Assembly: GCA_963784455.1 (NCBI GenBank)
Contig: CAWARN010000018.1
Location: 79,541-143,540 of the forward strand
Direction: 5' to 3'
Length of the DNA: 64,000 nt
Origin: an uncultured Acidobacteriota bacterium
GTDB taxonomy: Bacteria; Acidobacteriota; Vicinamibacteria; Vicinamibacterales; Fen-181
The notes below the pieces were generated by a model. The model did not search any database. It saw only the letters and a program-made list of their open reading frames with translations, and was not told the DNA's origin. The first letter of the stretch is position 1, and every line of letters starts with the position of its first letter. The position numbers and the translations under genes are program-made. Positions 11,236 to 42,530 of the stretch are shown here, piece by piece.

Positions 11236-13959
11236 CTAGAACCGCGTCCTCCACATGATCGACAGGTTCCGCCCCGGCGCGTCGATGCCCCACGCGATGC
11301 CGCGATAGTTCTTGTCGGTCATGTTCTCGAAGTCGATCAACAGCTCGCTGTGGCCGCCGAACCGGAACGCACCCCTGACGCCGACCGTCGTGTAGCCAGC
11401 CACGTCCGTGTACAGCGGCGCGGAGGAAGCCGTGCCGAGCACGCGCGCCTGCACCTGCGCAAGCGTCTCTCCAGTCAGGGTCAGCGTGTCGTCGGCGTTC
11501 CCCGCCACGCCGTCAGGGCCCGGCGACACCCATCCCCTTACCGTCGCGCCGTTGTAGAAGAAGCTCTTGATGGCGCTGGTTGAACGCGTCGCGCCCGTCC
11601 GCCGGTCCTCGAGGTCGAGCGTCGAGAGCCGCGTCTGGCGCGCGGCGGCGTGCAGGTACCCCTCGACCCACCAGCGCGCCGACGGCAGCATGTAGCGGAC
11701 CTTCAGGTACCCGTCCGGCGCCGGCGTGCCCCCCTCGATGTTCGGCGGCGCGCCCGTCGCGCGGTCGGCCGCGTGCAGGTAGGTGAATTCGGTCTGCACC
11801 AGCCACGCCTTCGACACGTTCCAGCGCAGCGAGTGCTCGAACCCGTAGATGCGCGCGTCGCCGTAGTTGGTCCGCACCAGCACCGGCGACGTGCTCGCCG
11901 GGACGTAGACCACGCCGTTCGCCCCCTGGGACGAGATCACCTGGTCGCCGAGCGGCTGGCCGACGGCGCCCTGCGGCAGGATCAACGACTGGTAGGCGAT
12001 GTTGTCGTAGACGTCGTTGGCGAACGCGAAGAAGTCGGTGCTGAGCGACCCGCGGCGGTAGTGGACTCCCACCTCGTACGACAGGCTGGTTTCCGGCCAG
12101 ACCTGCTCGGTCGGTATGCCGGTCGACACCGCGCTCGCGTTGGCCGTCGACCCCACCGTCGCCCCCCGTCCCTCCACTTCCTTGGCCGACACCTGGTAGC
12201 CCGACCCGGTCAGCCCCACCGTGCCAAGGTCCGTGATACTCGGCGCGCGGAAGCCGCGGCTGACGTTCGCCGTGAAGCTCAGGCCATTGAGGTCAGGCGT
12301 CACCGAGACGCCCGCGCGAAACGACGCGTTCGACACGCTCAGAGAGTCGTCCGGCCATAGCCTCTGGCCGTTGACGACCGGGCTGTCGGTAGCGAGCGAT
12401 TTGTAGGCCGCCCAGCTATAGCGGGCATTCAGCAATACCTGCAGCCGGTTGGGGATGGCGTCGAAGACATCCTGCACGTAGCCCGCGCCGCTGCGGTAGG
12501 TTGCGTTGTCGGGCACGCGGCCGCGCCGGACTGACGTCACCTGAGTCACCGGGTTGTAGCCGGTAGACGGCGCGTGGACGCGCTCGGGGTAGTACTCGCC
12601 GCCGAACAGCAGGTTGTGCCGCTCGCCGAGCCGCTTGGTCGCCTGCGCCTGGAAACCTTGCGCGTTCGTCCGCTCGGGTTCGCTCGTGATCGTGTTCTTG
12701 GGGTTGCCGTTTCCGCCCTGGTTCACGCGCTCCTCGTACTGCGAGTTGTACGAGTAGCTGGCCGTCACTTGGTCGAACCATCCGAAGCCGACGCGCTGGT
12801 ACTTCGCATAGAAGAAGTCGAGCGAGAGGTCCCGCAGGTCCGCCAGCAGGTTGCCGTCGCCGCCGAGCAGTTGGTCGTACCGCTTGCCGTCCGGCTGCTG
12901 CGTCCGGCTGTAGTTCAGCATCACCTGCTGGTTGGCGGTCGGCGCCCAGTTCATGCGGACGTAGCCGCCGTAGTGGTTGAAGCCCGTCTCGGGCAGGTTC
13001 GCGGGCATCAGCCTGTCCGACGACACCCCGAGGAACCTGGTGACCGCCGCGTGCGAGTCGATCCCGCCGCCGGGGCGCATGTCGTTGACCGTCCGCCCCG
13101 CCACATTGCCGAAGATGCCGAACGTGCCGGCCTGGTAGCCGAGCGCCAGGTTGGCGCCGACGTTCGAGCTCGCGGTCCCGCCTCTCGCCGCGAAGATCCC
13201 GTGCACGCCGGCGCTTCCGACGCCCGCAAGCGATGGCACCTGGGTCAGGAACTGCACGCTGCCCCCCAGCGCGTCGCTGCCGTACTGCGCGCTGTTGGCG
13301 CCCCGCAACACCTCGACCCCCTGGAGGTTGGTCGGCTCGATGAAATCCAGGAACGTGTTGACGCCCCCTCGCGCCGTCGACGTGGAGTAGCGGACGCCGT
13401 CCACGAACACGTTCACCTTGGCGCCCGTCAGGCCCCGGACATAGATGCCGGCCATCGTCGGGCTCGTCCGCAGTAGGTGCACGCCGGTCTGCTCGGCCAC
13501 CGCCTGCCCGACCACCTCCTTGGCGTTCATCTCGATGCCGACCTCGTCGATGATCGTCACGGCCTGCCCGGTGGCGGCGACGTCCTGCACCATGCCCCGC
13601 GTTCCCGTCACGCTGACCGTCGTCTCCACTCCCTCGATCGCCAGCGTCACGGCGACGCCGTCGGCGCCGCCCTCGCCCGGCGCCACCGCCATGCGCGTTT
13701 CGGCGAAGCCCGGCGCCAGCACCACCAGCACGTAGCGACCCGGCCTCACCGTCGCGAACTCGAACCGCCCTCGGTCGTTGGTCTTCGTCGAGCCGACGAC
13801 CGTCTGCTCAGCCGTCTGCAGCGACACGCTGGCGCCGACGACCACGCCTCCGCTCGTATCGCGGACCGTGCCGGTCATACCGCCTTCGGTCGCGCCCGCG
13901 CCGGCCACGAGCGCTGCCAGGAAGAGAACCGTCAGGAAGAACACAAAGGGACGACGCAT
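11236..13959 (-). CDS. TonB-dependent receptor with N-terminal carboxypeptidase-regulatory-like domain
   Basis: MRRPFVFFLTVLFLAALVAGAGA signal, then GTVRDTSGGVVVGASVSL..DRGRFEF..RPGRYVL (CarboxypepD_reg), a plug region (VTIIDEVGIE..GVHLLR..GIYVRGL), a long beta-barrel and terminal ..NLSIMWRTRF. Confidence 0.9.
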   Translation of the reverse strand: MRRPFVFFLTVLFLAALVAGAGATEGGMTGTVRDTSGGVVVGASVSLQTAEQTVVGSTKTNDRGRFEFATVRPGRYVLVVLAPGFAETRMAVAPGEGGADGVAVTLAIEGVETTVSVTGTRGMVQDVAATGQAVTIIDEVGIEMNAKEVVGQAVAEQTGVHLLRTSPTMAGIYVRGLTGAKVNVFVDGVRYSTSTARGGVNTFLDFIEPTNLQGVEVLRGANSAQYGSDALGGSVQFLTQVPSLAGVGSAGVHGIFAARGGTASSNVGANLALGYQAGTFGIFGNVAGRTVNDMRPGGGIDSHAAVTRFLGVSSDRLMPANLPETGFNHYGGYVRMNWAPTANQQVMLNYSRTQQPDGKRYDQLLGGDGNLLADLRDLSLDFFYAKYQRVGFGWFDQVTASYSYNSQYEERVNQGGNGNPKNTITSEPERTNAQGFQAQATKRLGERHNLLFGGEYYPERVHAPSTGYNPVTQVTSVRRGRVPDNATYRSGAGYVQDVFDAIPNRLQVLLNARYSWAAYKSLATDSPVVNGQRLWPDDSLSVSNASFRAGVSVTPDLNGLSFTANVSRGFRAPSITDLGTVGLTGSGYQVSAKEVEGRGATVGSTANASAVSTGIPTEQVWPETSLSYEVGVHYRRGSLSTDFFAFANDVYDNIAYQSLILPQGAVGQPLGDQVISSQGANGVVYVPASTSPVLVRTNYGDARIYGFEHSLRWNVSKAWLVQTEFTYLHAADRATGAPPNIEGGTPAPDGYLKVRYMLPSARWWVEGYLHAAARQTRLSTLDLEDRRTGATRSTSAIKSFFYNGATVRGWVSPGPDGVAGNADDTLTLTGETLAQVQARVLGTASSAPLYTDVAGYTTVGVRGAFRFGGHSELLIDFENMTDKNYRGIAWGIDAPGRNLSIMWRTRF

Positions 13960-14112
13960 CAGCCGACTCCTCGGGAAATGGGGGCCTCGGCCTGCTCGAT
14001 GCCAAAGCTCACGGAGTATTGGCCAAATCGCCATCTACTACCAGCGGTCGTAGTCAGGGGCGGCTCTCGGCCCAGGGCTCTTGGCTCCCGGCTTTGGTCT
14101 ACAATCCTCAAC

Positions 14113-15294
14113 ATGGGTTCCATCGATCCGGCCGCCGCGCAGCTGTCGGCGGATGAGATCCGCCGCTACAGCCGGCACCTGGTGCTGCCAGAAGTCGGCC
14201 TCGCGGGACAGCGGGCGATCAAGGCCGCGAAGGTCCTCTGCGTCGGCGCCGGGGGCCTGGGTTCTCCGGTCTCCATGTATCTCGCCGCGGCAGGCGTCGG
14301 CACCCTCGGCCTCGTCGACTACGACGTCGTCGACTTCAGCAACCTGCATCGGCAGATCCTGCACATGACCCGCGACGTCGGCCGGCCGAAGATCGAGTCG
14401 GCCCGCGAGCGGCTGACGGGGATCAACCCGGAGGTTCGCGTCGAGACCCACGCGTTCGCGCTGTGCTCCGCAAACGCCCTCGACCTCGTCTCGCGCTACG
14501 ACATCGTGGTGGACGGCTCCGACAACTTCCCGACGCGCTACCTCGTGAACGACGCGTGCGTGCTCATGCGCCGGCCGTACGTGTACGGCAGCATCTTCCG
14601 CTTCGAAGGCCAGGCCTCCGTATTCGCCGCCCCCGGCGGCCCCTGCTACCGGTGCCTCTACCCCGAGCCGCCGCCGCCCGGCCTCGTTCCGAGCTGCGCC
14701 GAAGGGGGCGTGCTCGGCGTCGTCCCCGGCATCATCGGCACCATCCAGGCCGCCGAGGCGCTGAAGCTGATCCTGAAGGCCGGCGAGACGCTCGTCGGCC
14801 GGATTCTGATTCTGGACTCCCTCGGGATGAAGTTCCGCGAGATTCGCCTCGCGCGCGACCCCGAGTGCCCGGTGTGCGGCGACGACCCGAGCATCCGCGC
14901 GCTGCAGGACTACGAGCAGTTCTGCGGGACGACGATTCCGGGCCAGGCAACCGAGACAGCCGGGACGACCGGGGCCGCCGACTTCGACGTCGCTCCCGAG
15001 GATCTCTACCGCGCCGTCGCGCAGGGCCGAACGCCGCTCCTGCTGGACGTCCGCGAACCGATGGAATTCCAGCTCGCGCGGCTGCCGGGCGCGCTCCTCA
15101 TCCCACTCGGCAGCCTCGCCGAGAGGCTCGGCGACATCGACGGCACCCGCGACATCGTCGTCTACTGCCACCACGGCATCCGCAGCGTCCAGGCCACGCA
15201 TCTGCTGCGGGCGGCCGGCTTTCACGCCCGAAACCTCACGGGCGGGATCGCGGCCTGGGCCGACCGGGTCGATCCGACGATGGTGCGGTACTGA
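14113..15294 (+). CDS. moeB: Molybdopterin-synthase adenylyltransferase (MoeB/MoeZ type) with C-terminal rhodanese domain
   Basis: YSRHLVLPEVGLAGQRAIKAAKVLCVGAGGLGSP (ThiF/MoeB nucleotide fold), CYRCLYPEPP..PSCAEGGVLG, CPVCG, then rhodanese LLLDVREPMEF...VVYCHHGIRS. Confidence 0.9.
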   Translation: MGSIDPAAAQLSADEIRRYSRHLVLPEVGLAGQRAIKAAKVLCVGAGGLGSPVSMYLAAAGVGTLGLVDYDVVDFSNLHRQILHMTRDVGRPKIESARERLTGINPEVRVETHAFALCSANALDLVSRYDIVVDGSDNFPTRYLVNDACVLMRRPYVYGSIFRFEGQASVFAAPGGPCYRCLYPEPPPPGLVPSCAEGGVLGVVPGIIGTIQAAEALKLILKAGETLVGRILILDSLGMKFREIRLARDPECPVCGDDPSIRALQDYEQFCGTTIPGQATETAGTTGAADFDVAPEDLYRAVAQGRTPLLLDVREPMEFQLARLPGALLIPLGSLAERLGDIDGTRDIVVYCHHGIRSVQATHLLRAAGFHARNLTGGIAAWADRVDPTMVRY

Positions 15295-15355
15295 CGACAG
15301 CCCAGCATCTCGCGATTTTGCGAACTGGCGATCTTGCGAAGTGGTGTCCGCTGGT

Positions 15356-15384
15356 TTGCATTTCGGCTGCCGGTTCCCTAAAAT
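15356..15384 (+). promoter_or_regulatory. Sigma-70-like promoter of the isc operon with a possible IscR site just downstream
   Basis: TTGCAT (15356-15361), 17-nt spacer, TAAAAT (15379-15384). It is followed by ATAGGACTACTGAGGTCGTATTT, which resembles Rrf2/IscR-type operators. Confidence 0.45.
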
Positions 15385-15417
15385 AGGACTACTGAGGTCG
15401 TATTTAAGATTGCCCCT

Positions 15418-15882
15418 ATGCTCAGGCTGTCGAAGAAGGCCGATTACGCGCTGATCGCCATGAAACACCTGGCCCTCCGTGAGGGACAGGGCTCGGCCAG
15501 CGCACGCGAAATCGCGGAGCGGTCCTCGATTCCCGTCGAGTTGATGGCGAAAGTGCTGCAGCGGTTGGCTCGGCGGGGTCTGCTCTCGTCCCAGCAGGGC
15601 ACCCGTGGCGGCTATCAGTTGACCAGAGATTCGGAGACTATTTCGGTCGCTGATGTCATCCAGGCGATTGACGGCCCGTTGACCGTCACCGCCTGCTCCG
15701 CCCATAACGAGCGCTGCGGGCAGTTTGCGACGTGCAACGTCCGCGACCCGCTCTGGAAGATCCGCGAGCTGATCGTCACGGCGCTCTCGACGTGCTCCGT
15801 GTCCGAGATGGCCTCGGAAACCACCGTCGTCGCGTCCGCCGCGGCAGTGCCGCAGCCGGTCGCCACACCCCAGGCAGGATAG
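15418..15882 (+). CDS. iscR: Rrf2-family Fe-S cluster regulator IscR
   Basis: [19 protein letters not shown]...[42 protein letters not shown], plus the Cys cluster [14 protein letters not shown]. It lies directly upstream of iscS. Confidence 0.85.
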
Positions 15883-15890
15883 CTGAGACG

Positions 15891-17099
15891 ATGCTGACGC
15901 TTCCGATCTACATGGACAACCACGCCACGACGCCGCTCGACCCTCGGGCGCTCGAGGCGATGATGCCGTATCTCACCGACCGTTTCGGCAACGCCGCGAG
16001 CCGCAACCATGCCTTCGGCTGGCAGGCCGAGGAAGCGGTGGAGGTGGCGCGCAAGCAGGTGGCGGCGCTGATTGGCGCGACGGCGAAGGAGATCGTCTTC
16101 ACGAGCGGCGCGACCGAGTCCGATAACCTCGCGATCAAGGGCGCGGCCCACATGTATCGCGAGAAGGGCAACCACATCATCACCGTTGTCACCGAGCACA
16201 AGGCGGTCATCGACACGTGCAAGCGCCTCGAGAAGGAGGGCTTCGACGTGACGTACCTGCCGGTCGGGCGAGACGGCCTCGTCGATCTGGATCAGCTCCG
16301 CGCGGCCATCACCGGCCGCACGATTCTCGTCAGCATCATGGCGGCCAACAACGAGGTCGGCGTGCTGCAGCCGATCGCCGAGATTGGCAGAATCACGCGC
16401 GAGCGCGGCGTGCTGTTCCACACCGACGCGGTGCAGGCGGCGGGGAAGGTGCCGTTCGACGTCGACGCGGCGTTCGTCGACATGGCGTCGCTGTCGGCGC
16501 ACAAGATGTACGGCCCGAAAGGCGTCGGCGCGCTCTACGTGCGGCGCCGGAACCCGCGGGTGTTGCTGACGCCGATCATCGACGGCGGCGGCCACGAGCG
16601 CGGCATGCGCTCCGGCACACTGAACGTGCCGGGCATCGTCGGGTTTGGCCAGGCGGCCGCGCTCTGCCGCGAGGAGCTGCCGGCCGAATCCGCGCGCGTG
16701 GCGGCGCTCCGCGATCGGCTCCACGACGGGCTTCGCCGGAATCTCGAGGACATCTTCGTCAACGGGTCGATGACGCACCGGCTGCCCGGGAACCTGAACC
16801 TGAGCTTCGCCTACGTCGAGGGCGAGTCGCTGCTGATGGGAATCGGCGACGTGGCGGTGTCGTCGGGGTCGGCGTGCACGTCGGCAACGCTCGAGCCGTC
16901 GTACGTGCTGAAGGCGCTCGGCGTCGGCGACGAGCTGGCGCACTCGTCGATCCGGTTCGGCCTCGGCCGGTTCAATACCGAGGAGGAAGTGGATTTCGTC
17001 GTCGACAAGCTGTCGGCGGTGGTCGTGCGGCTGCGGGAGATGTCGCCGCTCTACGAATTCGCGAGGGAGAGCGGGAAGCTGCTGAAGATGGCGGACTGA
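15891..17099 (+). CDS. iscS: Cysteine desulfurase IscS
   Basis: [41 protein letters not shown]...[20 protein letters not shown]...[17 protein letters not shown]. Confidence 0.95.
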
Positions 17100-17863: not shown

Positions 17864-18561
17864 GTGTCGAGCGAAATGCGGACGCTGGTGCTTCAGTCCT
17901 GTCGGCATTGCGGCGCGGGCGCGCCGACCGAGGTCCACTTCTGCCCCCAGTGCGAGCGGATTCTGACGCTGACTCGCCACGGCGACTACTTCAGCTTCTT
18001 CGGCCTTCCGCGCAAGCTCGTCGTCGACCTGGCGGATCTCGACGTCAGATTCCGCCGCTTGAGCCGGCAGTTCCACCCCGACTACTTCTACACGGCATCG
18101 GGCCCGGAGCGGCTCGCGAGCCTCGAGCGCGCGTCGTACCTGAATGACGCGTATCGCGTGCTGCGGCAGCCGTTGGATCGGGCGGAGTACTTCTCAAGCT
18201 CGAGGGGCTGCCGAGCGTCGGCACGCATCAGGACGCGCAGGAACTGCCGGCGGGTGTGCTCGAGGAGATGTTCGCGCTCAACGAGGAGCTCGACGAGATC
18301 CGTGGGGCTCGCGAGGCGGGCGCCTCCCCCGAGCAGCTCGGCGCGCGGATCGAGGCGGCCCGGCGGCCGGTTGAGGAGCGGGCGGCCCGGCAGGAGGCGC
18401 AGCTCGAGGCGCTGTTCCTGCGGTGGGACAAGCAGGTGGACGAGCAGGCGCCGCGCGACGTGCAGCGCGCGACGCTGGAGTCGATTCGCGGCCTGCTGCA
18501 GGAGCGGAGCTACATCGCGAACCTGATTGCCACCGCGAGCCGCGAGGGCGGCCAGTCATAG
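17864..18561 (+). CDS. hscB: Co-chaperone HscB (J-domain) with N-terminal CxxC..CxxC module; one frame break near 18192
   Basis: [22 protein letters not shown], then the J-domain [11 protein letters not shown]...[10 protein letters not shown] (HPD). After ..LDRAEY the sensible frame changes to [37 protein letters not shown]...[11 protein letters not shown] (frame of ORF 18256..18561). Confidence 0.75.
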
Positions 18562-18575
18562 ACTAGACGTCGTAG

Positions 18576-18595
18576 CGCGGGTCTTCAGACCCGCG
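18576..18595 (+). repeat. GTAG-CGCGGGTC-TTCA-GACCCGCG hairpin, 14 nt after the hscB stop
   Basis: Perfect 8-bp stem with a TTCA loop. The same 20-mer occurs at 20973-20992 and 32981-33000. Confidence 0.6.
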
Positions 18596-18610
18596 TTCGG
18601 TCATCGCGCC

Positions 18611-20470
<1,860 letters not shown>

Positions 20471-20473
20471 AAA

Positions 20474-20558
20474 TGATCAGTGGCTAGTGGTCAGTGACTA
20501 GTGATCAGTGGATCACGCGTGATCGACTAGCCACTAGCCACTGCCCACCGGCCACTAC
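20474..20558. repeat. About 85-nt lower-GC palindromic element, copy A (between hscA and fdx)
   Basis: TGATCAGTGGCTAGTGGTCAGTGACTAGTGATCAGTGGATCACGCGTGATCGACTAGCCACTAGCCACTG.. has long imperfect inverted arms around a CACGCGTG centre. A related copy lies in the opposite orientation at 27823-27900. Confidence 0.75.
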
Positions 20559-20581
20559 GGCCCGCAACGCGAGCGGTCCCT

Positions 20582-20956
20582 ATGCCGAGAGTGGTCTTCA
20601 TCGCTAATGGCGAGCGGAGAGCATTCGACGTCGATCTGGCGTCGATGCCCTACGAGCATCATGGCCTGCCGGGATCGCTGCTCGACGTGGCGATGAACGT
20701 CGGCGTGCCGATCGAGCACACCTGCGGCGGCCACTGCGCGTGCACCACCTGCCACGTGATCATCAAAGCCGGTGCCGAGAATCTGAGCGCGCTCGTCGAC
20801 GAGGAAGCGGACCGGCTCGACACCGCGTGGGAGGTCGGGCCGCAGTCGCGCCTCGCGTGCCAGGCCGTCGTGAAGGGCGACGTGGAGTGCGAGATCCCCG
20901 CCTACTCGCGCAACTACGTGCTGGAAGGCGGCGGCATCCGGCTGGGGAAGAGGTAG
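20582..20956 (+). CDS. fdx: ISC-type [2Fe-2S] ferredoxin
   Basis: ..GLPGSLLDVAMNVGVPIEHTCGGHCACTTCHVIIK...QSRLACQAVV: C-x5-C-x2-C...C ligands of adrenodoxin-type ferredoxins, in the position fdx normally occupies in isc operons. Confidence 0.9.
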   Translation: MPRVVFIANGERRAFDVDLASMPYEHHGLPGSLLDVAMNVGVPIEHTCGGHCACTTCHVIIKAGAENLSALVDEEADRLDTAWEVGPQSRLACQAVVKGDVECEIPAYSRNYVLEGGGIRLGKR

Positions 20957-21681: not shown

Positions 21682-22587
21682 TCACCGGCGCGGAAGCGGG
21701 TGAAGGACGTCTGCAATCGCCTCGGCTGCATCCGCGAGCCTGGGTCCCGGCACCACGAATTCGTCACCGACTAGCAGCGCCACACGCCCTTCCCGCACGG
21801 CGGGTAGGGCGGTGAGCGACTGCCACGCCGCCCGTTCGCGATCGATCTGCTCGGCGGACAGCGTGCGCCCGTAGTGCAGATCGATGACGATTTCCGGGGC
21901 GGCGGCCAGGATCGCCTCGGTGCCGATTCTGACCGCCTCCCGCTTCTCGCCCGCGAGCACGTTCTCGCCGCCCGCGAGCGACACGATATCGGCGAGGAAC
22001 CCGACGCCGCCGCTCGCGTCGATCCCGCGGAGCGCCCCCGGCTCTCGGCCGAACACCAGCAGCGTCCGCGGGCGCTTACGTCCGGCGACGCGCGCGCGGA
22101 TTGCGTCGAAGCGCGCCTCGAGGACCGCGGCCACCTGCTCCGCCTCCTGCGTGCGGCCGACCGCCTGACCGAGCCTGCGAACGGTGCCCATCAGGTTGCC
22201 GAGGCCGCCCATGACATAGGGAAACGTCGCGATGCCGGCCCGCTCGAGCTTCTCGCGGACCTCCGGCGTGGATCCGTAGACCACCACGAGATCGGGCTGC
22301 AGCCTGAGGATCCGCTCGATATCGGGGTCGAGCAGCGCGCCCACCCTGGTGAGTCCCTTCACCTCTGGCGGCCACGTGTCGAAGCTGCTGACGGCCACCA
22401 CGTGCGGTCCCGCACCGATCGCAAACAGCATCTCGGTGACGGCCGGGACAATCGACACGATGCGCCGCGGCGGTCCGGCGGAGCGCCGCTCGCGCGCGGA
22501 CGGGGCAGCGCCCGGCGCGCAGGCGGCGAACACCACGGCGCACGCCACGCACATCGTCACCGGAGATAGGCGGGGGAGGTACGGCAT
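21682..22587 (-). CDS. Periplasmic substrate-binding protein of a cobalamin/iron-siderophore ABC importer (BtuF-like)
   Basis: MPYLPRLSPVTMCVACAVVFAAC (lipoprotein-like signal), RIVSIVPAVTEMLFAIGAG..VVAVSSF..., PDLVVVYG. Last gene of the riboswitch-led operon. An alternative start exists at 22620. Confidence 0.8.
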   Translation of the reverse strand: MPYLPRLSPVTMCVACAVVFAACAPGAAPSARERRSAGPPRRIVSIVPAVTEMLFAIGAGPHVVAVSSFDTWPPEVKGLTRVGALLDPDIERILRLQPDLVVVYGSTPEVREKLERAGIATFPYVMGGLGNLMGTVRRLGQAVGRTQEAEQVAAVLEARFDAIRARVAGRKRPRTLLVFGREPGALRGIDASGGVGFLADIVSLAGGENVLAGEKREAVRIGTEAILAAAPEIVIDLHYGRTLSAEQIDRERAAWQSLTALPAVREGRVALLVGDEFVVPGPRLADAAEAIADVLHPLPRR

Positions 22588-22978
22588 GCTCGCACTACGC
22601 TTCTGAGCTCCGGTCGGCATCGTCCGCCAGCCCCCCTCGTCGGTCAGGGTATCACGCACGCCGTGTGACGGGGTGCAGTGGTCCACGATCGGAAGACAAC
22701 CACAAAGCACACAGAGAACTCGGAGGCTCCACGGCTGCCTGCGCTGCTTCAACCGGGCGGCGCCACCGAACGGTGGCGCCAGGCGGCCGAGCGGCGCGCA
22801 GCGCAAGCGAGCCCGGTCGAGTCCCACAGCCGGGTTCGCCTGCGCTGTGCACCGCTCGGCGCTCCGGGCCTTCGGCCCGGCCCCGGTTGAAGCGCACCGG
22901 TGGAAATCGCCGCCACGCGTGACGCGGCCGGCCTCCGTGTTCCTCCGTGTCCTCCGTGGTTCAAATCGTGAGCGAGCG
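22588..22978 (-). repeat. Repeat- and hairpin-rich intercistronic spacer inside the btu-like operon
   Basis: Three tandem CCTCCGTG(T/G) units at 22932-22959 face a related inverted motif, AACCACAAAGCACACAGAGAAC, at 22698-22719. Between them lie GGCGCCACC-GAAC-GGTGGCGCC, a long imperfect hairpin of about 69 nt (22789-22857), and CCGGGCC-TTC-GGCCCGG. Confidence 0.55.
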
Positions 22979-23980
22979 TCAGCCGCGGCGGATCAGGAGC
23001 CACAGGAAGAACGGGCCGCCGATCATCGCCGTCAGGATGCCGACGGGCAGCACCATCGGCGCGATGAGCGTCCGCGCGGCCACGTCGCAGACGACGAGGA
23101 ACGCCGCGCCGAACAGCGTTGCGGCTGGAAGCACGAGCCGATGATCGGACCCCACCAGCAGTCGCACCAGGTGCGGCACGATGATGCCGATGAAGCCGAT
23201 CGGCCCGCCGAGCGACACCGCCGCGCCGGTGGCGAGCGACGCGCTGAAGAAGGCCAGGCGCTGCGTCCGCACCACGTCCACGCCGCGCGCCGACGCCGCG
23301 TCGGCGCCGAGCGTCAGCAGGTTCAACGACCGCGGCATCCACGCGAACACGGCGAACGCCAGCAGCGTGAACGGCAGCGCCGCCACGATCGGCGCGTAAC
23401 TGCCGACGTCCAGGTCGCCCATCAGCCACCGCACCGTCCTCATCGTCTGGGAGAAATCGGCGAGGTACTGGACGAAAAGGATGAGCGCCGAGAAGAACGC
23501 GTTGAGGGTGATGCCCGCCAGCAGCAGCACGTTCGTCGAGAGGCCGCGGCGGCGGATAGTGGACAGCACGTAGACAATCGCCACCGCGCCGAGCGCGCCA
23601 GCGAAGCTGGCGACCGGCACCGTCGAGACGCCGGCGAAGGCGAGCGACACAGGGAACGTAATCGACAGCATCGCCCCGAGCGCCGCGCCCGCCGACACGC
23701 CCAGGGTGAACGGCGTGGCCAGCGGGTTGCGGAGCAGCGCCTGAAACACGACGCCCGACGCGGCGAGCGCCGCGCCCACGAGGGCGGCCGCCAGCGTTCG
23801 GGGCAGCCGGGAGATGAAGAAGATCTGCGCGTCGGTGTTGTCCGCGAACGGAATGCTCCGGTCGAAGACGCGCCGCAGCGAAATCGGGACGGAGCCGACG
23901 ACCGGCGCGACCAGGCATGCCGCCACGGCCAGGATGCCGAACACCAGAACGGTGAGAAGGACGCGGCGTCGCAGCGTCAT
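22979..23980 (-). CDS. FecCD-family ABC permease (BtuC-like)
   Basis: MTLRRRVLLTVLVFGILAVAACL...RLPRTLAAALVGAALAASGVVFQALLRNPLATPFTLGVSAGAALG...GPIGFIGIIVPHLVRLLVGSDHR. ATGA overlap with the upstream ATPase gene. Confidence 0.9.
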   Translation of the reverse strand: MTLRRRVLLTVLVFGILAVAACLVAPVVGSVPISLRRVFDRSIPFADNTDAQIFFISRLPRTLAAALVGAALAASGVVFQALLRNPLATPFTLGVSAGAALGAMLSITFPVSLAFAGVSTVPVASFAGALGAVAIVYVLSTIRRRGLSTNVLLLAGITLNAFFSALILFVQYLADFSQTMRTVRWLMGDLDVGSYAPIVAALPFTLLAFAVFAWMPRSLNLLTLGADAASARGVDVVRTQRLAFFSASLATGAAVSLGGPIGFIGIIVPHLVRLLVGSDHRLVLPAATLFGAAFLVVCDVAARTLIAPMVLPVGILTAMIGGPFFLWLLIRRG

Positions 23981-24777
23981 TCGGCTCGCCCCACCGCGCC
24001 CGTCCGGCGAAGCGGCACCACGGTCAGGTGGCCGGCGCCGGAGTGGAAGTGGACGTCCGCCTCGACGTCGTAGAGCGCGCGCACCGACTCGCGCGTCAGC
24101 ACCTGGTCGGTGAGCCCGGCCGCCAGCACGCGCCCCTCGCGAAGCAGAACCAGGCGCCGGCACAGGCCGGCCGCCAGGTTGAGGTCGTGCGTGGCCACCG
24201 CCATCGTCACGCCGCGCTCGGCGTTCAGCCGGCGCAGCAGCGTCGCGATCTCGATCTGGTAGCCTGGATCGAGCGCCGTGGTCGGCTCGTCGAGCAGCAT
24301 CAGGCCGGCCGACTGCGCCAGCGCGCTCGCGATGATCACCCGCTGCTTCTCGCCGCCGCTGAGCGTCGGGAACAGGCGATCCTCGAGGGCGAGCGTGCCC
24401 GTCGCGGCCAGCGCCTCGCGCGCAATCGCCAGGTCCTGCTGGCTCTCGAGCTCGAAGGCGCCGAGGTGCGGGTATCGGCCCATGAGCACGACCTCGAGCA
24501 CCGAGTACTCAAACGAGAGCCGGGTCTCCTGCGGGACGACCGCAATGCGCTTCGCGACTTCGCGCCTGGGAATACGGGCCAGGTCGCGTCCGTCGATCAT
24601 GACGCGGCCCGATGCCGGCGTCAGCATGCCGCCGAGCAGCCGCAGCAGTGTGGTCTTCCCCGAGCCGTTCGGCCCCAGGATGCCGACCAGGTCGCCGGGC
24701 GGGACCTCCAGCGACACGCCGTGCAGGCCGGCCGGCCCTGGGCCGTAAACGAAGCTGACGTCAGCGGCCTGCAGCAA
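23977..24777 (-). CDS. ABC transporter ATP-binding protein (BtuD/FepC-like)
   Basis: GILGPNGSGKTTLLRLL (Walker A), LSGGEKQRVIIASAL (signature), LMLLDEPTTALD (Walker B). TTG start. It overlaps the receptor gene by 17 nt. Confidence 0.9.
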   Translation of the reverse strand: MLQAADVSFVYGPGPAGLHGVSLEVPPGDLVGILGPNGSGKTTLLRLLGGMLTPASGRVMIDGRDLARIPRREVAKRIAVVPQETRLSFEYSVLEVVLMGRYPHLGAFELESQQDLAIAREALAATGTLALEDRLFPTLSGGEKQRVIIASALAQSAGLMLLDEPTTALDPGYQIEIATLLRRLNAERGVTMAVATHDLNLAAGLCRRLVLLREGRVLAAGLTDQVLTRESVRALYDVEADVHFHSGAGHLTVVPLRRTGAVGRAE

Positions 24778-27058
24778 CCCGCACCCCGATCATCCCGTTG
24801 CGGCCGAGCGCCGGAAACCCGTACGTCTCCTCGTAGGACCGGTCGAACAAGTTCCCGATCCGGCCGATCACTTCGACCGCCCGCACGATCCTCCACGACG
24901 CGCCGACGTCGACCGACGAGAACCCGGGATTCGTGAACAGGCCGCCCCACGTGCCGTAGGTGGGCTCGACGTCGAGCGTGTGCGAGCGGCCGCCGACGCG
25001 GCCGAACGCGGTCAGCGATCCTCGCACGAACGTCAGATCGAGAGCGGCCAGGTGCCGCGGTCGGCGCAGGAGCGGATCGCCGACGACGAACGGCGGCGGC
25101 GCTTCGTCTAGGCTGTCCACCGCGAGGATCGCGGTGTCGAGGAACGTGTAGGACGCCCGGGCGGTCAGGCCCCATCCCGCGCGGAACGCCGCCGACAGCT
25201 CGACTCCCTGCGCCCTGGCGTTCGAGATGTTGTCGGTCCGGTAGCGGCTGGCATCCGCCAGCGCCGGGCCGACGGCGACGATGAGGTCGTCATAGCGGTT
25301 GAAGAAGGCCGTGGCGCCGACGACGAGTCGCTCGCGAAGAAACGCCTGGTCCGCGCCCGCCTCTACGCTCCGGCTCCTCTCGGGCAAGAGGGCGGGGTTG
25401 TCGGTGAACGCGATCTCGAGCGCGTCCGGGGCGCGGATGCCCGTGCCGGCCGCCGCGTGAATCCGCGTCCAGCCCCGAGTGCCGTCGCGCGGCCCCGCGA
25501 GCACGAACGCCGCCGAGAGACGGGGGTTTGCCGACCAGCGCGCATCCTCGGGCAGCGCCGGCCGCGGCGAGTAGTAATCGGAGCTGGCCGGCATCGCGTC
25601 GCGCACCAGGTGCTCGACGCGCAGGCCGGCCGTCAGGCTGAGCGGCGACAGCGGCTGGTAGCGCGCCTCCGCAAAGAGCCCCGCCACCGAGCGCCGGATG
25701 GGCAGCGGCCCGGTCTGGTCCGCGGTGATGAACGTGCTCGTCGCCCGCTCGCGCAGGACTTCGATGCCGGCCGACAGCGCAAGCGAGGCGGTCAGATCGG
25801 CGTCGGTCTGCGAGCGGATCGTCGCCCGACTGGACGCGGTCGCCGACAGTCCGTAGGCGCTGGTGAAATCGCTCGAGAGATCGAAGTAGTTCGCGCTGAC
25901 GGTCTGATGGAGCGCGTGCCCCCCGGCCGAGAACTGCTGCGTCCACCGGCCGCCCGCCTGGATCGAACTCGTGACGCCGCGCGCGAGCCGGTCGACCGCC
26001 GTGTACGCGCCAATCGGGTTCGAGCCGTACGGGCCCGGATAGCCGCGATCGCCCGACACGTAGCGCAGCGACCCGCGGACGTCCGCGCCGCCGGCCCCCC
26101 GCCACCCGATTGAAATCCCTGCGTTGTCAGAGAGGTAGTCGTCGTTCGAGACCTGCTCGCCCGTGGCGGGCGCGATCCCCGTGTACCCGTCGCTCGCCGT
26201 GCGCTCGGCCGACCCGCCCCAACTCCAGGAGCCGCGGGAACCCCACGTCCCGGCGCTGACGCGGGAGGTGCCGAAGCTCCCGCCCTCGACGAGCACCTCG
26301 ACGCGCGGGCGGCCGGTGTGCTTCGTCACGACATGCACCACCGCGCCGATGGCGTCCGCACCGAAAAGGGCGCTCTCGGGCCCGCGCACGACTTCGATCC
26401 GTTCCACCTGGTTCGCGGTCAGCGTCGAGAAGTCGTAGCCGCCGCCGAAGGCGTTGGCCTTGATCCCGTCGACCATCACGAGCGTGTAGTCCGATTCGCC
26501 GCCGCGCGGGAAGAGCGACGTCACCGCGCCGCGGCCGCCGTTGCGCGAGACGGTCAGGCCAGGGACGAAGCGGAGCGCGTCGGCGACCGTTTCGGTCTGT
26601 GCCGCCTGCAAATCGCGGCTCGAGATGACGGTGACAGAATCCGCCGCCCGTGCGAGCGGCATCTCCACCTGCGAGGCCGACACCACGACCGATTCGGTCA
26701 GGGCGCTGACGTGCAGCCCGAATGCGACGCGCGTCTCCTCGCCGGGCGCGGCGACGATCGCGAGCGGCTCGCCGCGGAAACCGTCCGCCGCGACCCGGAG
26801 TTCGTAGCGGCCCGGAGCGACGCGGTCGAACTGGAACTCGCCCTCCGCAGAGGTTTCAGCGGAGGCGACGACCGACAGGGGGCTCGCCAGCACGACATGC
26901 GCGTGCGGCACCCGCGCGCCGGCGGGGTCCGAAACCGTCCCACGCACCACCGCAGTTTCCGGGGTGATGATCCCGGCACTTGCGTGTGCGGCGACGAGGA
27001 CCAGGACGATGAAGGGGGGTCCTCCGGATCGGAGGAAGACACGGAGAAATGAGAGCAT
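24761..27058 (-). CDS. TonB-dependent receptor (BtuB-like), CarboxypepD_reg N-terminus
   Basis: Signal peptide, GTVSDPAGARVPHAHVVL..EGEFQF..APGRYEL, plug (DSVTVISSRDL...ALRFVPGLTV...LFPRGGESDYTLVMVDGIKAN), barrel, terminal ..GMIGVRVAAGR. A cobalamin riboswitch lies immediately upstream. Confidence 0.9.
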   Translation of the reverse strand: MLSFLRVFLRSGGPPFIVLVLVAAHASAGIITPETAVVRGTVSDPAGARVPHAHVVLASPLSVVASAETSAEGEFQFDRVAPGRYELRVAADGFRGEPLAIVAAPGEETRVAFGLHVSALTESVVVSASQVEMPLARAADSVTVISSRDLQAAQTETVADALRFVPGLTVSRNGGRGAVTSLFPRGGESDYTLVMVDGIKANAFGGGYDFSTLTANQVERIEVVRGPESALFGADAIGAVVHVVTKHTGRPRVEVLVEGGSFGTSRVSAGTWGSRGSWSWGGSAERTASDGYTGIAPATGEQVSNDDYLSDNAGISIGWRGAGGADVRGSLRYVSGDRGYPGPYGSNPIGAYTAVDRLARGVTSSIQAGGRWTQQFSAGGHALHQTVSANYFDLSSDFTSAYGLSATASSRATIRSQTDADLTASLALSAGIEVLRERATSTFITADQTGPLPIRRSVAGLFAEARYQPLSPLSLTAGLRVEHLVRDAMPASSDYYSPRPALPEDARWSANPRLSAAFVLAGPRDGTRGWTRIHAAAGTGIRAPDALEIAFTDNPALLPERSRSVEAGADQAFLRERLVVGATAFFNRYDDLIVAVGPALADASRYRTDNISNARAQGVELSAAFRAGWGLTARASYTFLDTAILAVDSLDEAPPPFVVGDPLLRRPRHLAALDLTFVRGSLTAFGRVGGRSHTLDVEPTYGTWGGLFTNPGFSSVDVGASWRIVRAVEVIGRIGNLFDRSYEETYGFPALGRNGMIGVRVAAGR

Positions 27059-27333: not shown

Positions 27334-27789
27334 CTATCGCGCCAGACTTGCGATCTCCCGGACAACCTCCTCGTGCGTCGGGAAGTCGAACTGCGACGAG
27401 GCGACGAAGCTGTAGCGGATGAGGCCCTGGCGATCGACGAGAAACAGCGCGGGCCGCGCGATGTTCCACGCGCCGAACCCGACCGGGTGCCAGACGCCGT
27501 ACGCCTTCACCGTCTCCCGCGAGTCGTCTACGAGAATGTTGAAGGGCAGGCCGGTCTCTTCGATGAAGCGCCGCACCTTCTCCGACCGCTGCGCGACGAC
27601 GGCGACCACCTGCACGCCGAGCGAGAGGTACTCCATCGAGTGGTGTGCCAGTTCACCGAACTGGCGGCGGCAGTTCGGTCACCACGTGCCCCGGTGGAAC
27701 GCCAGCAGCACCGGGCCGAGGAGGAGGTAGTCGGCGAGCGAGTGCGCCTCGCCGCGCTGGTTCGGCAGCGCGAACGGCGGGGCGGGCAT
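27334..27789 (-). CDS. Peroxiredoxin-like (AhpC/TSA, redoxin) protein with in-frame UGA at the catalytic Cys position; candidate selenoprotein
   Basis: ATG 27789: MPAPPFALPNQRGEAHSLADYLLLGPVLLAFHRGTW-[TGA 27681-27679]-PNCRRQFGELAHHSMEYLSLGVQVVAVVAQ...PFNILVDDSRETVKAYGV... to the stop at 27334. The total length of 456 nt is in frame. W-U-P-x-C-R-R-Q aligns with the WCPxC redox motif of this family. Confidence 0.7.
27655..27679 (-). promoter_or_regulatory. SECIS-like hairpin directly 3' of the in-frame UGA
   Basis: The RNA reads UGA-CCGAACUG-CCGCCGC-CAGUUCGG-U. The stem is a perfect 8 bp, or 9 bp with A:U from the UGA. The 7-nt loop contains G residues 13-16 nt after the U of UGA. Confidence 0.5.
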
Positions 27790-27822
27790 GCCGGGGAGGA
27801 GTGTGGGATGCAGCATAGAGTC

Positions 27823-27900
27823 GTAGTGGCTAGTGGTCAGTGGCTAGTATGACACGCGTGATCCACTAGTCACTGATCACAAGCCACTAGCCACTTCTAG
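27823..27900. repeat. About 80-nt lower-GC palindromic element, copy B (between the Prx-like gene start and moeA stop)
   Basis: GTAGTGGCTAGTGGTCAGTGGCTAGTATGACACGCGTGATCCACTAGTCACTGATCACAAGCCACTAGCCACTTCTAG. Arms AGTGGCTAGTGG/CCACTAGCCACT and TCAGTGGCTAGT/ACTAGTCACTGA surround CACGCGTG. It is similar to the reverse complement of 20474-20558. Confidence 0.75.
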
Positions 27901-29120
27901 AAGAGGATCACGTCGACAACCTGTCCCTTCTCCACAATGTCCGTCTGCGCCGGAATCTCGATGTACCCGTCGGCCTGCGACATGCTGGTGATGTCGCCCG
28001 ACGCCTTGAACGCCGGCATCGCCGTCCCCTCCACCACTCGCACCGTGTAGAACTGGTGGCGTCCGGTGGTGGACACGACGCGCTGCCCGAGCGGCAGCCG
28101 GACCGTGCGCTCCACCGCCTCGGGCAGCCTGGCCATCCGGCGCAGCATCGGCGCGACCAGCATGTAGCCGTTCGACAGGCACGAGGTCGGGTAACCCGGC
28201 ATGCCGATGACCGGCGTGCCGTCGATGATTCCGAACAGCGTCGGCTTTCCCGGCTTCACCGCAATCCCGTGGAACACGATCTTCCCGCGAGCGGCGATGG
28301 CGTCGAGGATCAGATCGCGCTCGCCGACCGAACTCCCGCCCGAGAAGATCACGAGATCCTCGGCGAGCGCCGTGTCGAGAGCGCGGTCGAGATCTTCCAG
28401 CGTGTCCGCCGATGTCGGGTAAGGCACCGGCACCGCGCCGTGCTCAGCAACGATCGCGGACAGCGTGAATCTGTTGATGTCGTAGATCTGGCCCGGGGCG
28501 AGCGCGCGTCCGGGCGAGACAATCTCGTTGCCGGTCGACAGGATGGCCACGCGCGGCCGCTCGAAGACCTCGACACGATCGATCCCGAGCGCAGCGACGG
28601 CGCCGACGCGGCTCGATGTCAGGTAATCGCCGGCCGCCAGCACAGGCTGGCCGACCTGGATGTCCGCGCCCTGCCGGCCGACGTTCTGGCCCGGGTACAC
28701 CGGGCCGAACACTCGCACCGTTCCGGCGTCGTCCTTTTCCGTCTCCTCGACCATCACCACCGCATCGGCGCCGTCAGGCATCGGCGCGCCGGTGGCGATC
28801 TCGGCGCAGCCGCCGCGCTCGATGGCGCGCGTCGGCACCTGGCCCGTGTAGACCTTCTCGACGACGTGAAACACCCGCGGGCTGAACGGCCCCGCGCCGA
28901 ACGTGTCGGCCGCGATGACGGCATAGCCGTCCATCGCGGCGCGCGTGAAGGGAGGGACGTCCTGCGCCGCCACGATTGCGGAGGCCAGCACGCGCTGGTG
29001 GGCCGACTCGAGCGACACGGTCTCGACGCGCGCCACCGGCCGCGCCGCGCCGCGCATCAGCGCCCGCGCCTCCTCGAGCGGAATCGTCTCACGAATCGGC
29101 CGCATTGATTGCTCGGACAT
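27897..29120 (-). CDS. moeA: Molybdopterin molybdotransferase MoeA
   Basis: MSEQSMRPIRETIPLEEARALM...PPFTRAAMDGYAV...IATGAPMPDGADAVVMVE...ILSTGNEIV...SGGSSVGERDL...GIAVKPGKPTLFG. Confidence 0.9.
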   Translation of the reverse strand: MSEQSMRPIRETIPLEEARALMRGAARPVARVETVSLESAHQRVLASAIVAAQDVPPFTRAAMDGYAVIAADTFGAGPFSPRVFHVVEKVYTGQVPTRAIERGGCAEIATGAPMPDGADAVVMVEETEKDDAGTVRVFGPVYPGQNVGRQGADIQVGQPVLAAGDYLTSSRVGAVAALGIDRVEVFERPRVAILSTGNEIVSPGRALAPGQIYDINRFTLSAIVAEHGAVPVPYPTSADTLEDLDRALDTALAEDLVIFSGGSSVGERDLILDAIAARGKIVFHGIAVKPGKPTLFGIIDGTPVIGMPGYPTSCLSNGYMLVAPMLRRMARLPEAVERTVRLPLGQRVVSTTGRHQFYTVRVVEGTAMPAFKASGDITSMSQADGYIEIPAQTDIVEKGQVVDVILF

Positions 29121-29165
29121 AGGGCTGCGCTTCCGCTTCCAGCTGGCAGCTGCCAGCCGGCACCC

Positions 29166-29268
29166 GAGAGGCAGGCGCGGACCGGGTCGGCGCGAAGGGC
29201 GACTTGAGGTCTGCCGAACGGAGCCCGGAGCCGACGAACCGGGCCACGACTGACGTCTCATCGCCGGC
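29166..29268 (-). repeat. About 103-nt structured intergenic repeat, copy B (between moaB and moeA)
   Basis: Reverse complement of 10851-10954 with few differences. On the minus-strand operon transcript it reads in the same sense as copy A does behind the + strand HAD gene. Confidence 0.8.
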
Positions 29269-29280
29269 CCCGCGTCCAAA

Positions 29281-29309: not shown

Positions 29310-29813
29310 CTACCTCGACGCCTCCCGCACCAGATGCCCCAGTTCCGGCAGCACGAGCTTGGTCATCGCCAGCCGCACGGCGTTCTCCGACCCGGGCAGC
29401 GAGAAGATCACTCTGTTCTTCGCCAGCCCCGCGCACGCCCGGCTGAGCATCGCCGCCGAGCCAATCTCCTGGAAGCTCAGCATCCGGAACAGCTCGCCGA
29501 ACCCGTCCAGCCGCTTTTCGAGCAGCGCGTCGATCGCCTCGAACGTCGTGTCGCGCGAGGTGATCCCGGTGCCGCCCGTCGTGATGACGACCTGCACATT
29601 CGGGTTGGCCAGCTGATCGCGGATCGCTGCGGCCACCTGGTCCGGCTCGTCGCGCACGATCTTCCGCCCGGCCACCTGGTGCCCGCCCGCCCACAGAAGG
29701 TCGAAGATGGCGCGCCCGCTGAGGTCGGTGGCCTCCGTTCGCGAGTCGCTGATCGTCAGGATGTAACAACTGGCGACAGCCGGCGACTGCGCCTTGTGCT
29801 CCAGATGTCCCAT
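29310..29813 (-). CDS. moaB: Molybdenum cofactor biosynthesis protein MoaB/MogA family
   Basis: MGHLEHKAQSPAVASCYILTISDSRTEATDLSGRAI...VVITTGGTGITSRDTTFEAI...LSRACAGLAKNRVIFSLPGSENAV. Confidence 0.85.
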   Translation of the reverse strand: MGHLEHKAQSPAVASCYILTISDSRTEATDLSGRAIFDLLWAGGHQVAGRKIVRDEPDQVAAAIRDQLANPNVQVVITTGGTGITSRDTTFEAIDALLEKRLDGFGELFRMLSFQEIGSAAMLSRACAGLAKNRVIFSLPGSENAVRLAMTKLVLPELGHLVREASR

Positions 29814-29873
29814 GGGGGAATCATATCGTAGACCGCCACATCGGGTCGCCGGCGGTGTAGGATTGCGCTGTCC

Positions 29874-30578
29874 ATGCCACCAGTCTTCGAGATCCGAGGC
29901 CTGACGAAGATCTACACGATGGGGGAGGTCGACGTGCACGCCCTCCGCGGCATCGACCTCGATATCGACGACGGCCGGTTCGTCGTCATCCTCGGGCATT
30001 CGGGCAGCGGCAAGTCGACGCTGCTCAACATCGTCGGCGGCCTCGACTTCCCGACGTCGGGAAGCGTCAGTTACCGGGGGCAGGATTCGACGGCGGCCAG
30101 CGAACGCGCCCTCACGGCGTTCCGACGCCACAAGGTCGGCTTCGTCTTCCAGTTCTACAACCTGATCCCGAGCCTGACCGCCCGGGAGAACGTCGACCTC
30201 GTCACCGAGATCTCCGACGACCCGATGCCGTCAGTGGCGGCCCTCGCCCTCATGGGCCTGGCCGACCGCGCCGATCACTTCCCCGCGCAGATGTCGGGCG
30301 GCGAGCAGCAGCGCGTCGCCATCGCACGCGCCATCGCCAAGCGCCCGGACGTCCTGCTGTGCGACGAGCCGACGGGCGCCCTCGACATCACCACCGGCGT
30401 CGTCGTCCTCGACGCGCTGGCGCGCGTGAACAGCGAACTCGGGACGACCGTGGCGGTGATTACGCACAACGCCGCGATCTCCGCGATGGCCGACCGGGTG
30501 GTGACGCTGGCGGACGGGCGGATCGTCAGCGACCAGGCGAACGCGGTGCGGGCCGCGGCGGGAGACATCAGGTGGTGA
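29874..30578 (+). CDS. ABC transporter ATP-binding protein (MacB/LolD-like)
   Basis: [20 protein letters not shown] (Walker A), [33 protein letters not shown] (signature), [12 protein letters not shown] (Walker B). Confidence 0.9.
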
Positions 30579-37789: not shown

Positions 37790-37866
37790 GCGCCCTTAGC
37801 TCAGTTGGATAGAGCGTCTGGCTACGAACCAGGAGGTCGCAGGTTCGAGTCCTGCAGGGCGCGCCA
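37790..37866 (+). tRNA. tRNA-Arg (anticodon ACG), CCA encoded
   Basis: GCGCCCTTAGCTCAGTTGGATAGAGCGTCTGGCTACGAACCAGGAGGTCGCAGGTTCGAGTCCTGCAGGGCGCGCCA. Acceptor GCGCCCT/AGGGCGC, D-loop AGTTGGATA, anticodon loop CTACGAA, T-arm GCAGG-TTCGAGT-CCTGC. Confidence 0.95.
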
Positions 37867-42152: not shown

Positions 42153-42155
42153 ATC

Positions 42156-42509: not shown

Positions 42510-42530
42510 CACCACCTGGCACGTGGTCTT

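Follow-up and report, generated by a model that had tools for sequence, protein, structure and literature searches.

The 64-kb stretch of DNA analysed here, called the window throughout, comes from contig CAWARN010000018.1 of an uncultured Acidobacteriota bacterium, and it carries on its minus strand a peroxiredoxin-like (Prx-like) gene with a single in-frame UGA codon, which we propose to be read as selenocysteine (Sec, U). The list of open reading frames (ORFs) has just two minus-strand entries here, 27334..27636 (100 aa) and 27679..27816 (45 aa); a preliminary description, made earlier from the letters of the same stretch, had named the first. That description also held that 456 nucleotides (nt) from ATG 27789 form a single frame broken by one TGA at 27681-27679, and translation confirms this: from 27789 to 27334 the product reads MPAPPF...LAFHRGTW, the stop, and PNCRRQFGELAHH..., beginning with PNCRRQFGEL after the stop, and has this one internal stop. 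The frame extends to 27816, and from there to 27334 it has the same TGA as its sole TGA and no other disruption. The start codon needs to be revised: ATG 27789 is found in 5 of 16 sequences (the window and 15 close relatives), whereas the position of ATG 27816, 45 codons 5' of the UGA, holds ATG, GTG or a start one codon off in all 16. Because this start is conserved, we take the gene to span 27334-27816. The features of the locus are collected in Table 1.

The UGA stands where related proteins carry a cysteine. Searching 5.8 billion proteins gave 1,528 relatives, the best 120 of which are full-length (141-170 aa), share 60-70% identity with the window protein, are named peroxiredoxin or BCP and come from Acidobacteriota and Vicinamibacterales. 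When 20 homologs were aligned, as the preliminary description had recommended, Cys occupied the UGA column in 20/20, within the invariant block FHRGTW-C-PNCR. In the same alignment the 45 residues that precede the UGA are conserved at the protein level, and this excludes the concern, also voiced there, that the upstream codons might not be conserved as coding sequence. At the nucleotide level, when each bacterial species was scanned through a single genome, 80 related loci were obtained, all in metagenome-assembled genomes (MAGs) labelled Acidobacteriota or Vicinamibacterales bar two probable mis-binned contigs; at these species-level loci HRGTW is followed by TGA in 68 cases, by TGC in 7 and by TGT in 5. 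An independent scan of Joint Genome Institute (JGI) metagenome contigs gave 79 loci (TGA 68, TGC 6, TGT 5). Pooled with the window, the TGA loci number 137 and the Cys loci 23; the 45 nt downstream of the TGA take 107 distinct forms, and TGA is found in every one of the closest relatives (83-87% protein identity). Ratios of nonsynonymous to synonymous substitution rates (dN/dS), computed with ten close relatives (from L001-L012), were 0.22-0.39 for the upstream 45 codons, with one short-segment outlier of 0.79, and 0.13-0.37 for the downstream 110 codons. On either side of the UGA they thus stay well under 1, and in 19/20 comparisons below 0.4; both halves are therefore maintained as protein. 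Of additional note, the two contigs with discordant labels, L043 (JBDTXA010000013.1, labelled Rhodanobacter sp.) and L076 (CAWKDP010000012.1, labelled Actinomycetes), are identical over the 45 nt examined to the Acidobacteriota loci L044 and L075, respectively; mis-binning in the MAGs concerned is the probable cause.

We examined the RNA downstream of the UGA against the published consensus for the bacterial selenocysteine insertion sequence (bSECIS), which has an apical loop of 3-9 nt with a G in its first two positions, usually G[G/U], an upper stem of 4-16 bp, a distance of 16-37 nt from UGA to loop and a free energy of -7.5 kcal/mol or lower (PMC13188914). With the U of the UGA numbered nt 1, the window coordinate of nucleotide n is 27682 minus n. 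The perfect hairpin that the preliminary description had seen right after the UGA, CCGAACUG-CCGCCGC-CAGUUCGG (H1), is present, with 8 bp and -11.2 kcal/mol. Its spacing had been placed at the short end of the SECIS range; it is 8 nt, outside the published 16-37 nt, and the loop starts with CC, so that H1 departs from two of the four constraints and is improbable as the recoding element. An overlapping hairpin, GCCAGUUC-GGU-GAACUGGC (H2), fits all four, with a 3-nt GGU loop, 8 bp, 21 nt and -12.5 kcal/mol. It lies within the minimum-free-energy fold of the 61-nt context and encodes part of R-Q-F-G-E-L-A. Since the strand CAGUUCGG is common to H1 and H2, the two cannot form together. In a third hairpin, H3, nt 14/16-20 pair with 24-28/30 around the loop G21-U22-U23. 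We rejected H3 as a universal element: it has -4.5 kcal/mol in the window, is 68.9% paired across loci and is the better hairpin only in a subclade of 33 loci.

Table 1. Coordinates of the Prx-like gene, its candidate RNA elements and its neighbours in the 64-kb window.
Feature	Position	Strand	Remarks
Predicted selenoprotein gene	27334..27816	minus	ATG 27816, Sec-UGA codon 46, stop TAG 27336-27334, 160 codons; single frame
In-frame UGA, read as putative Sec residue 46	27679..27681	minus	Cys in homologs; TGA kept across loci
UGC codon, Cys49, partner of Sec46 in UxxC	27670..27672	minus	Invariant in all aligned sequences
H1, hairpin of the preliminary description, CCGAACUG-CCGCCGC-CAGUUCGG	27656..27678	minus	nt 4-11 pair with 19-26
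H2, proposed SECIS, GCCAGUUC-GGU-GAACUGGC	27647..27665	minus	nt 17-24 pair with 28-35; fits bSECIS
GGU apical loop, Gly51 codon, putative SelB contact	27655..27657	minus	G25-G26-U27; fits G[G/U]
MoeA	27897-29279	minus	Upstream of Prx-like gene
MoaB/Mog-like protein	29313-30131	minus	Upstream of Prx-like gene
Cobalamin riboswitch, RF00174	27116-27315	minus	Rfam 64.8 bits; 19 nt past the selenoprotein stop
TonB-dependent receptor	24761-27058		After riboswitch
ABC ATPase	23977-24777		After riboswitch
FecCD permease	22979-24163		After riboswitch
Periplasmic binding protein	21682-22827		After riboswitch

A hairpin consistent with the bSECIS consensus is found in 137/137 Sec loci (104 of H2 type, 33 of H3 type) and in 1/23 Cys loci. 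Among the 69 Sec sequences of the genome set and the window, H2 is 98.5% paired, with A-U/G-U exchanges at 20:32, U-A/U-G exchanges at 22:30 and one double compensatory change; its loop reads GGU 58 times and GGC 11 times. The synonymous sites within the hairpin are nearly frozen: over R-R/Q-F-G-E-L, the third-position entropies in the Sec loci are 0.00, 0.00, 0.00, 0.63, 0.55 and 0.22 bits, compared with roughly 0.8-1.9 bits in the majority of the gene's remaining Arg, Gly and Leu columns, and the flanking third positions (Pro47, Arg50, Ala57) vary freely. In the Cys loci of the genome set, by contrast, the same synonymous sites vary and the loop Gly is replaced by Ala, Ser or Thr codons in 12/12; a few metagenome Cys forms keep the loop Gly with other codons. 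The sole Cys locus with a hairpin is L070, a TGT form in which nt 3121-3171 give an H2-like 8-bp stem with the loop GCC and -9.4 kcal/mol, which is probably the fossil of a SECIS in a gene recently converted from Sec to Cys. Nearly all of the 33-locus subclade (L016, L026, L031, L034, L035, L037 and 25 of the metagenome loci, some within L083-L162) has CGU-CGC-CGG-UUC-GGC-GAC after the UGA. In this subclade H2 is weak (mean -7.3 kcal/mol, with a U-C mismatch), and H3, shifted by 4 nt, has 7 bp, the loop GUU at 17 nt from the UGA and a mean of -11.5 kcal/mol. Two SECIS registers thus appear to be used within one orthologous family.

Several observations weigh against reading the codon as Sec, or limit what the hairpin can say for it. 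In DNA of 68.6% G+C, a hairpin after a TGA is common: among the 1,387 TGA triplets of the window, 19.5% pass a loose SECIS model and 4.0% reach -12.5 kcal/mol, with 0.65% matching the stem length and loop start of H2. Covariation is thin, with shuffles attaining the observed score in 49/500 cases; these modest statistics arise because the near-invariant helix hardly varies. The conservation of the hairpin is partly confounded with that of the amino acids, and the isolated 42-nt segment, taken without upstream codons, folds in an H1-like manner. Finally, SelA, SelB, SelD and tRNA-Sec were not found in the 64-kb window or in the 0.82 Mb of flanks of 160 related loci, a negative result that is uninformative on the whole genomes. 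As a single hairpin is weak evidence in such GC-rich DNA, our case rests on the contrast between Sec and Cys loci and on the frozen synonymous sites; it takes the comparative data to lift the signal far beyond chance. No Rfam family matched the hairpin at the gathering threshold, and no SECIS family did; at E <= 10 nothing but noise came up.

Weighing these results, we consider that the functional SECIS is most likely H2 (nt 17-35) and not H1. The alternative is that Sec is inserted and the working element is H1 (nt 4-26), or a switch between H1 and H2, instead of H2 alone. Some bacterial SECIS elements have been reported outside the consensus (PMC9312934, PMC13188914), and H1, besides having a perfect and stable 8-bp stem, is 95% paired in the Sec loci and dominates the isolated 42-nt fold in many of them. 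Its 5' arm, however, consists of the Pro-Asn-Cys codons, which are identical in the Cys forms; the Pro wobble position (G44/C19/A5/T1) breaks its pair in 25/67 Sec sequences, and -7.5 kcal/mol is reached by H1 in 43/69 Sec loci compared with 65/69 for H2, in addition to the spacing and the CCGCCGC loop, which depart from the consensus. With a UGA in the A site, moreover, the first ~10 nt past the codon lie inside the mRNA channel of the ribosome. The channel thus covers nt 4-11, and the 5' arm of H1 would therefore be unavailable at decoding, with H2 starting just outside. H1 as the working element, alone or in a switch, is accordingly very improbable.

Taken together, the Cys column in 20/20 homologs, the TGA in 136 related loci, the purifying selection on both sides and the distribution of the SECIS-like hairpin between Sec and Cys loci make it very probable that the UGA at codon 46 of the frame from 27816 to 27334 is translated as Sec in a Prx-like thiol:disulfide oxidoreductase. 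The inserted residue would be Sec itself, with H2 bound by SelB, as judged from sequence comparison. We suggest a plausible course of events. The ribosome arriving at the UGA would melt H1, the first ~10 nt downstream being in the mRNA channel; the freed strand CAGUUCGG could then pair with GAACUGG to form H2, with its GGU loop, just outside the ribosome; and SelB with its Sec-tRNA(Sec) would bind the apical part of H2 and compete with release factor 2 in supplying Sec at the A site.

Another alternative accepts recoding through the hairpin and disputes the residue: Cys could be inserted by a tRNA-Sec-like tRNA(Cys) and a SelB-type factor, or Trp or Cys by near-cognate read-through. The identity of the residue is deduced here from sequence, the Sec machinery was missing from the window and the flanks searched, and both tRNA-Sec-like tRNA(Cys) and allo-tRNAs occur in bacteria, Acidobacteria having the allo-tRNAs. 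Nevertheless, reports of the selC*-type tRNA(Cys) concern anaerobic Firmicutes, Thermodesulfobacteria, Nitrospirae and Proteobacteria and do not extend to Acidobacteria, and the allo-tRNA anticodons listed in a review do not include the UGA-reading UCA. The element itself fits the consensus of SECIS elements of the SelB type. Insertion of Cys would bring no gain over TGC, yet TGA and a costly RNA constraint are kept in ~85% of loci; because of this lack of advantage, we would give a residue other than Sec a few chances in a hundred.

As for the machinery, SelA, SelB and SelD were sought with Pfam on 40 window ORFs and with tblastn of the E. coli proteins against the window and the 160 loci (0.89 Mb), and tRNA-Sec with ARAGORN. 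Over the window, 60 genome loci and 80 metagenome loci, ARAGORN called no tRNA-Sec but only tRNA-Arg(ACG) and one odd tRNA-Phe. The lack of sel genes near the locus is what unlinked genes would give, and has no bearing on the genomes. The odd call is a 93-nt tRNA-Phe (GAA) at L045:3870-3962 (-) with the anticodon at position 31; given this unusual length and geometry, ARAGORN either miscalled it or met an atypical tRNA-like element. A precedent for Sec exists in the phylum: three selenoprotein families were assigned to Acidobacteria by Zhang et al. in 2006 (PMC1794560), and Occallatibacter riparius has three selenoprotein genes (PMC12013277). In the literature we found no paper joining Vicinamibacteria and selenocysteine, and the text and supplements of BSepDB give no lineage detail.

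The comparative data effectively refute the readings in which only the 45-aa and/or the 100-aa fragment is made and the TGA stems from a nonsense mutation, from a mistake in sequencing or assembly, or from the decay of a pseudogene. Just one base separates TGA from TGC or TGT, and gene finders do see two fragments; but the same TGA recurs in 136 other loci across studies, assemblers and species, the frame has no other disruption, dN/dS stays far under 1 before and after the TGA, the start 45 codons upstream is conserved, and the RNA hairpin co-varies with TGA versus TGY. Genome-wide reassignment of UGA (e.g., to Trp or Gly), for which there is precedent in that UGA is a sense codon in some uncultured bacterial lineages, is refuted by the stop-codon usage of the window: many Pfam-supported genes there end at TGA with the domain model complete (FecCD, matched over 2-311/311, ends at residue 392/394, and Aminotran_1_2 at 740/746). 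In addition, a scan of the 64 kb for TGAs lying in frame between two stretches of coding signal returned only the Prx-like gene, and the homologs have Cys, not Trp or Gly, at the UGA column. A second match in that scan was discarded, being two adjacent genes in the same frame.

How the Sec form came to be distributed is a more tentative matter. One scenario, to which we would give somewhat less than even odds, is that the Sec form is ancestral and dominant in Vicinamibacterales (~85% of species), that several independent Sec-to-Cys reversions have occurred, one of them leaving the fossil SECIS of L070, and that one subclade re-registered its SECIS by 4 nt with hardly any change in the peptide. 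Vicinamibacterales are an abundant soil order and mainly aerobic. If this scenario holds, there would be a large unannotated selenium dependence in soil Acidobacteriota, and the locus would offer a natural system for studying SECIS evolution under coding constraint, including a possible co-translational switch between the mutually exclusive H1 and H2. The matched Sec and Cys orthologs, the SECIS at frozen sites, the two registers and the apparent fossil make a compact case for Sec/Cys exchange.

The preliminary description inferred a UxxC selenoprotein that gene callers would cut short, and this is supported by the Cys alignment, the conservation of TGA, the selection on the protein, the hairpin and the state of the databases. 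The protein database has no full-length relative above 70% identity, though genomes encoding Sec forms of 71-87% identity are public; from the lack of any full-length Sec form among 5.8 billion proteins it follows that gene callers cut these genes short or split them. Well over a hundred public Acidobacteriota assemblies thus carry a conserved redox enzyme in split or truncated form, and, as no curated NCBIfam model covers it, pipelines will keep missing the gene. Bacterial selenoproteins are numerous (a 2026 database lists ~57,000 genes), and those of the Prx-like UxxC type are well known, having been catalogued since 2004-2006. We regard the gene as almost certainly a genuine but ordinary selenoprotein and a useful annotation catch, which leaves knowledge of the mechanism of Sec insertion unchanged. 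Modestly new are the dominance of Sec across a major soil order, the two SECIS registers in one family and the Cys form with an apparent fossil SECIS. Routine use of Sec, and hence a selenium requirement, is indicated in a dominant soil order.

The gene was earlier said to lie between a B12 operon and the molybdenum cofactor genes moeA and moaB. MoeA and a MoaB/Mog-like protein are indeed encoded upstream; the B12 genes need a different name, as the four-gene set controlled by the cobalamin riboswitch is a B12 uptake operon and not a biosynthetic one. The order moeA-Prx-riboswitch is kept in the clade of the window (L001-L013, L018) and not in more distant loci, and the gene-order comparison gave no sign of a functional link between the Prx-like gene and its neighbours. 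The spacer between moeA and the Prx-like gene (27824-27895) holds an imperfect palindrome with 35-nt arms built of AGTGGCTAGT/ACTAGCCACT units. In close relatives the same spacer holds palindromes of other repeat units, e.g., CTGGCAG (L001), GGCTCA/TGAGCC (L003) and GGCTCTC/GAGCC (L012), so that the architecture is conserved and the sequence is not. The palindrome could be a terminator, an operator or an element resembling repetitive extragenic palindromic (REP) sequences.

Other parts of the window deserve brief mention. The segments 13477-17096 (+) and 18527-20953 (+) encode a ThiF and rhodanese fusion (MoeB/MoeZ-like), a class-V aminotransferase of the cysteine desulfurase type, HscA (Hsp70) and a 2Fe-2S ferredoxin, a sulfur-mobilisation and Fe-S cluster neighbourhood ~10 kb from the molybdenum cofactor genes, with no in-frame TGA. 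The tRNA-Arg(ACG) at 37790-37866 (+), which in many related loci lies 2-7 kb from the Prx-like gene, is followed a few kb on by a stretch of low G+C content at about 41500-45000 (61-65%, against the 68.6% mean). This stretch has few Pfam-recognisable ORFs and includes one for a helix-turn-helix (HTH)/MqsA-like antitoxin (42156-42506); it may be a small mobile island.

Turning to the protein, with U read as C it matches the Pfam domain AhpC-TSA (PF00578) at 6.3e-30 and 104 bits against a cut-off of 26, over positions 2-123/124 of the profile, and Redoxin at 1.9e-23, the Pfam matches spanning residues 9-142. Its best full-length relative of solved structure is the BCP of Aeropyrum pernix (PDB 2cx3; 7e-18, residues 9-158, HMMER), in which the column of Cys49 is that of the peroxidatic Cys and the Sec column holds Ser/Thr, three residues before. 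In ResA of B. subtilis (PDB 3c71), GTWCPHC is aligned with GTWUPNC, and the similarity ends at residue ~108; from this alignment, Sec takes the place of the N-terminal nucleophile of a thioredoxin-type CxxC. The earlier assignment of the UGA to the catalytic first Cys of a WCPxC motif therefore holds for the first Cys of CxxC and has to be qualified for BCP, whose peroxidatic Cys aligns with the second. None of the NCBIfam models reaches its cut-off for the product: BCP/PrxQ (NF006960 and NF053650) scores 60.5 against 140 bits and 33.9 against 260, the SelL-related model (NF040769) 54.3 against 120 bits and over residues 11-108 only, ResA 52 against 170 bits, and PrxU (NF040737) 21.8 against 270 bits. 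The gene thus belongs to a branch outside the curated models.

The Prx-like thiol:disulfide oxidoreductase family is defined by PF00578 with a thioredoxin-like UxxC, not the TxxU of Sec-peroxiredoxins (PMC1088965, PMC9312934, PMC13188914). By this definition, of domain plus motif, the window protein matches the selenoproteins of that family. The Sargasso Sea survey asked for Cys homologs aligned to the UGA and for a TGA kept in at least 2 different sequences (PMC1088965); here there are Cys homologs in 20/20, 137 TGA loci and 107 distinct 45-mers. The Sec-peroxiredoxin PrxU was considered and rejected, as the Sec of the window protein stands three residues N-terminal of the peroxidatic position, which in TxxU is that of Sec, and the PrxU model gives its 21.8 bits. 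Sec46 and Cys49 are the sole Cys/Sec residues in the translation and the N-terminus is not hydrophobic; we therefore infer a cytoplasmic enzyme of thioredoxin fold that would cycle through an intramolecular selenenylsulfide, its substrate being a peroxide or a disulfide. Sec46 of U-P-N-C would be the exposed nucleophile that attacks the oxidised substrate, Cys49 would then resolve the intermediate to give the selenenylsulfide, and a thioredoxin-type reductant would recycle it.

Compared with known systems, the gene is closest in description to the Prx-like family of Kryukov, Zhang and Gladyshev (representative WP_010940744.1, Geobacter sulfurreducens), with which it shares AhpC-TSA and UxxC, abundant Cys homologs and a SECIS hairpin in the coding region just past the UGA. 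It differs from that description in that the branch belongs to Vicinamibacterales/Acidobacteriota of soil and sediment, has W-U-P-N-C, carries Sec in ~85% of loci and appears to use two SECIS registers within one orthologous group. PrxU of the Eubacterium acidaminophilum type has the same Pfam domain, a Sec-dependent thiol redox function and a coding-region SECIS; its Sec, however, is the peroxidatic residue of TxxU, whereas the window protein would have Sec at the Thr/Ser position and Cys at the peroxidatic one. With BCP/PrxQ (2cx3) the protein shares the scaffold, including the C-terminal half; unlike them, it lacks PxxxTxxC and a resolving Cys five residues on, and has instead a CxxC-type pair with Sec first. 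ResA, TlpA and DsbE have a near-identical active-site string, with the Sec position being that of the N-terminal nucleophilic Cys of CxxC, but they are membrane-anchored or periplasmic and act in cytochrome c maturation, whereas the window protein has no hydrophobic N-terminus. At the RNA level, H2 resembles the bSECIS of the E. coli fdhF type in being a coding-region hairpin with a small apical loop starting G-G-U. It differs in its 3-nt loop, in its stem, which is perfect and predicted to have no bulged U, and in being rivalled by an upstream hairpin that shares a strand with it, while one subclade uses a register shifted by 4 nt.

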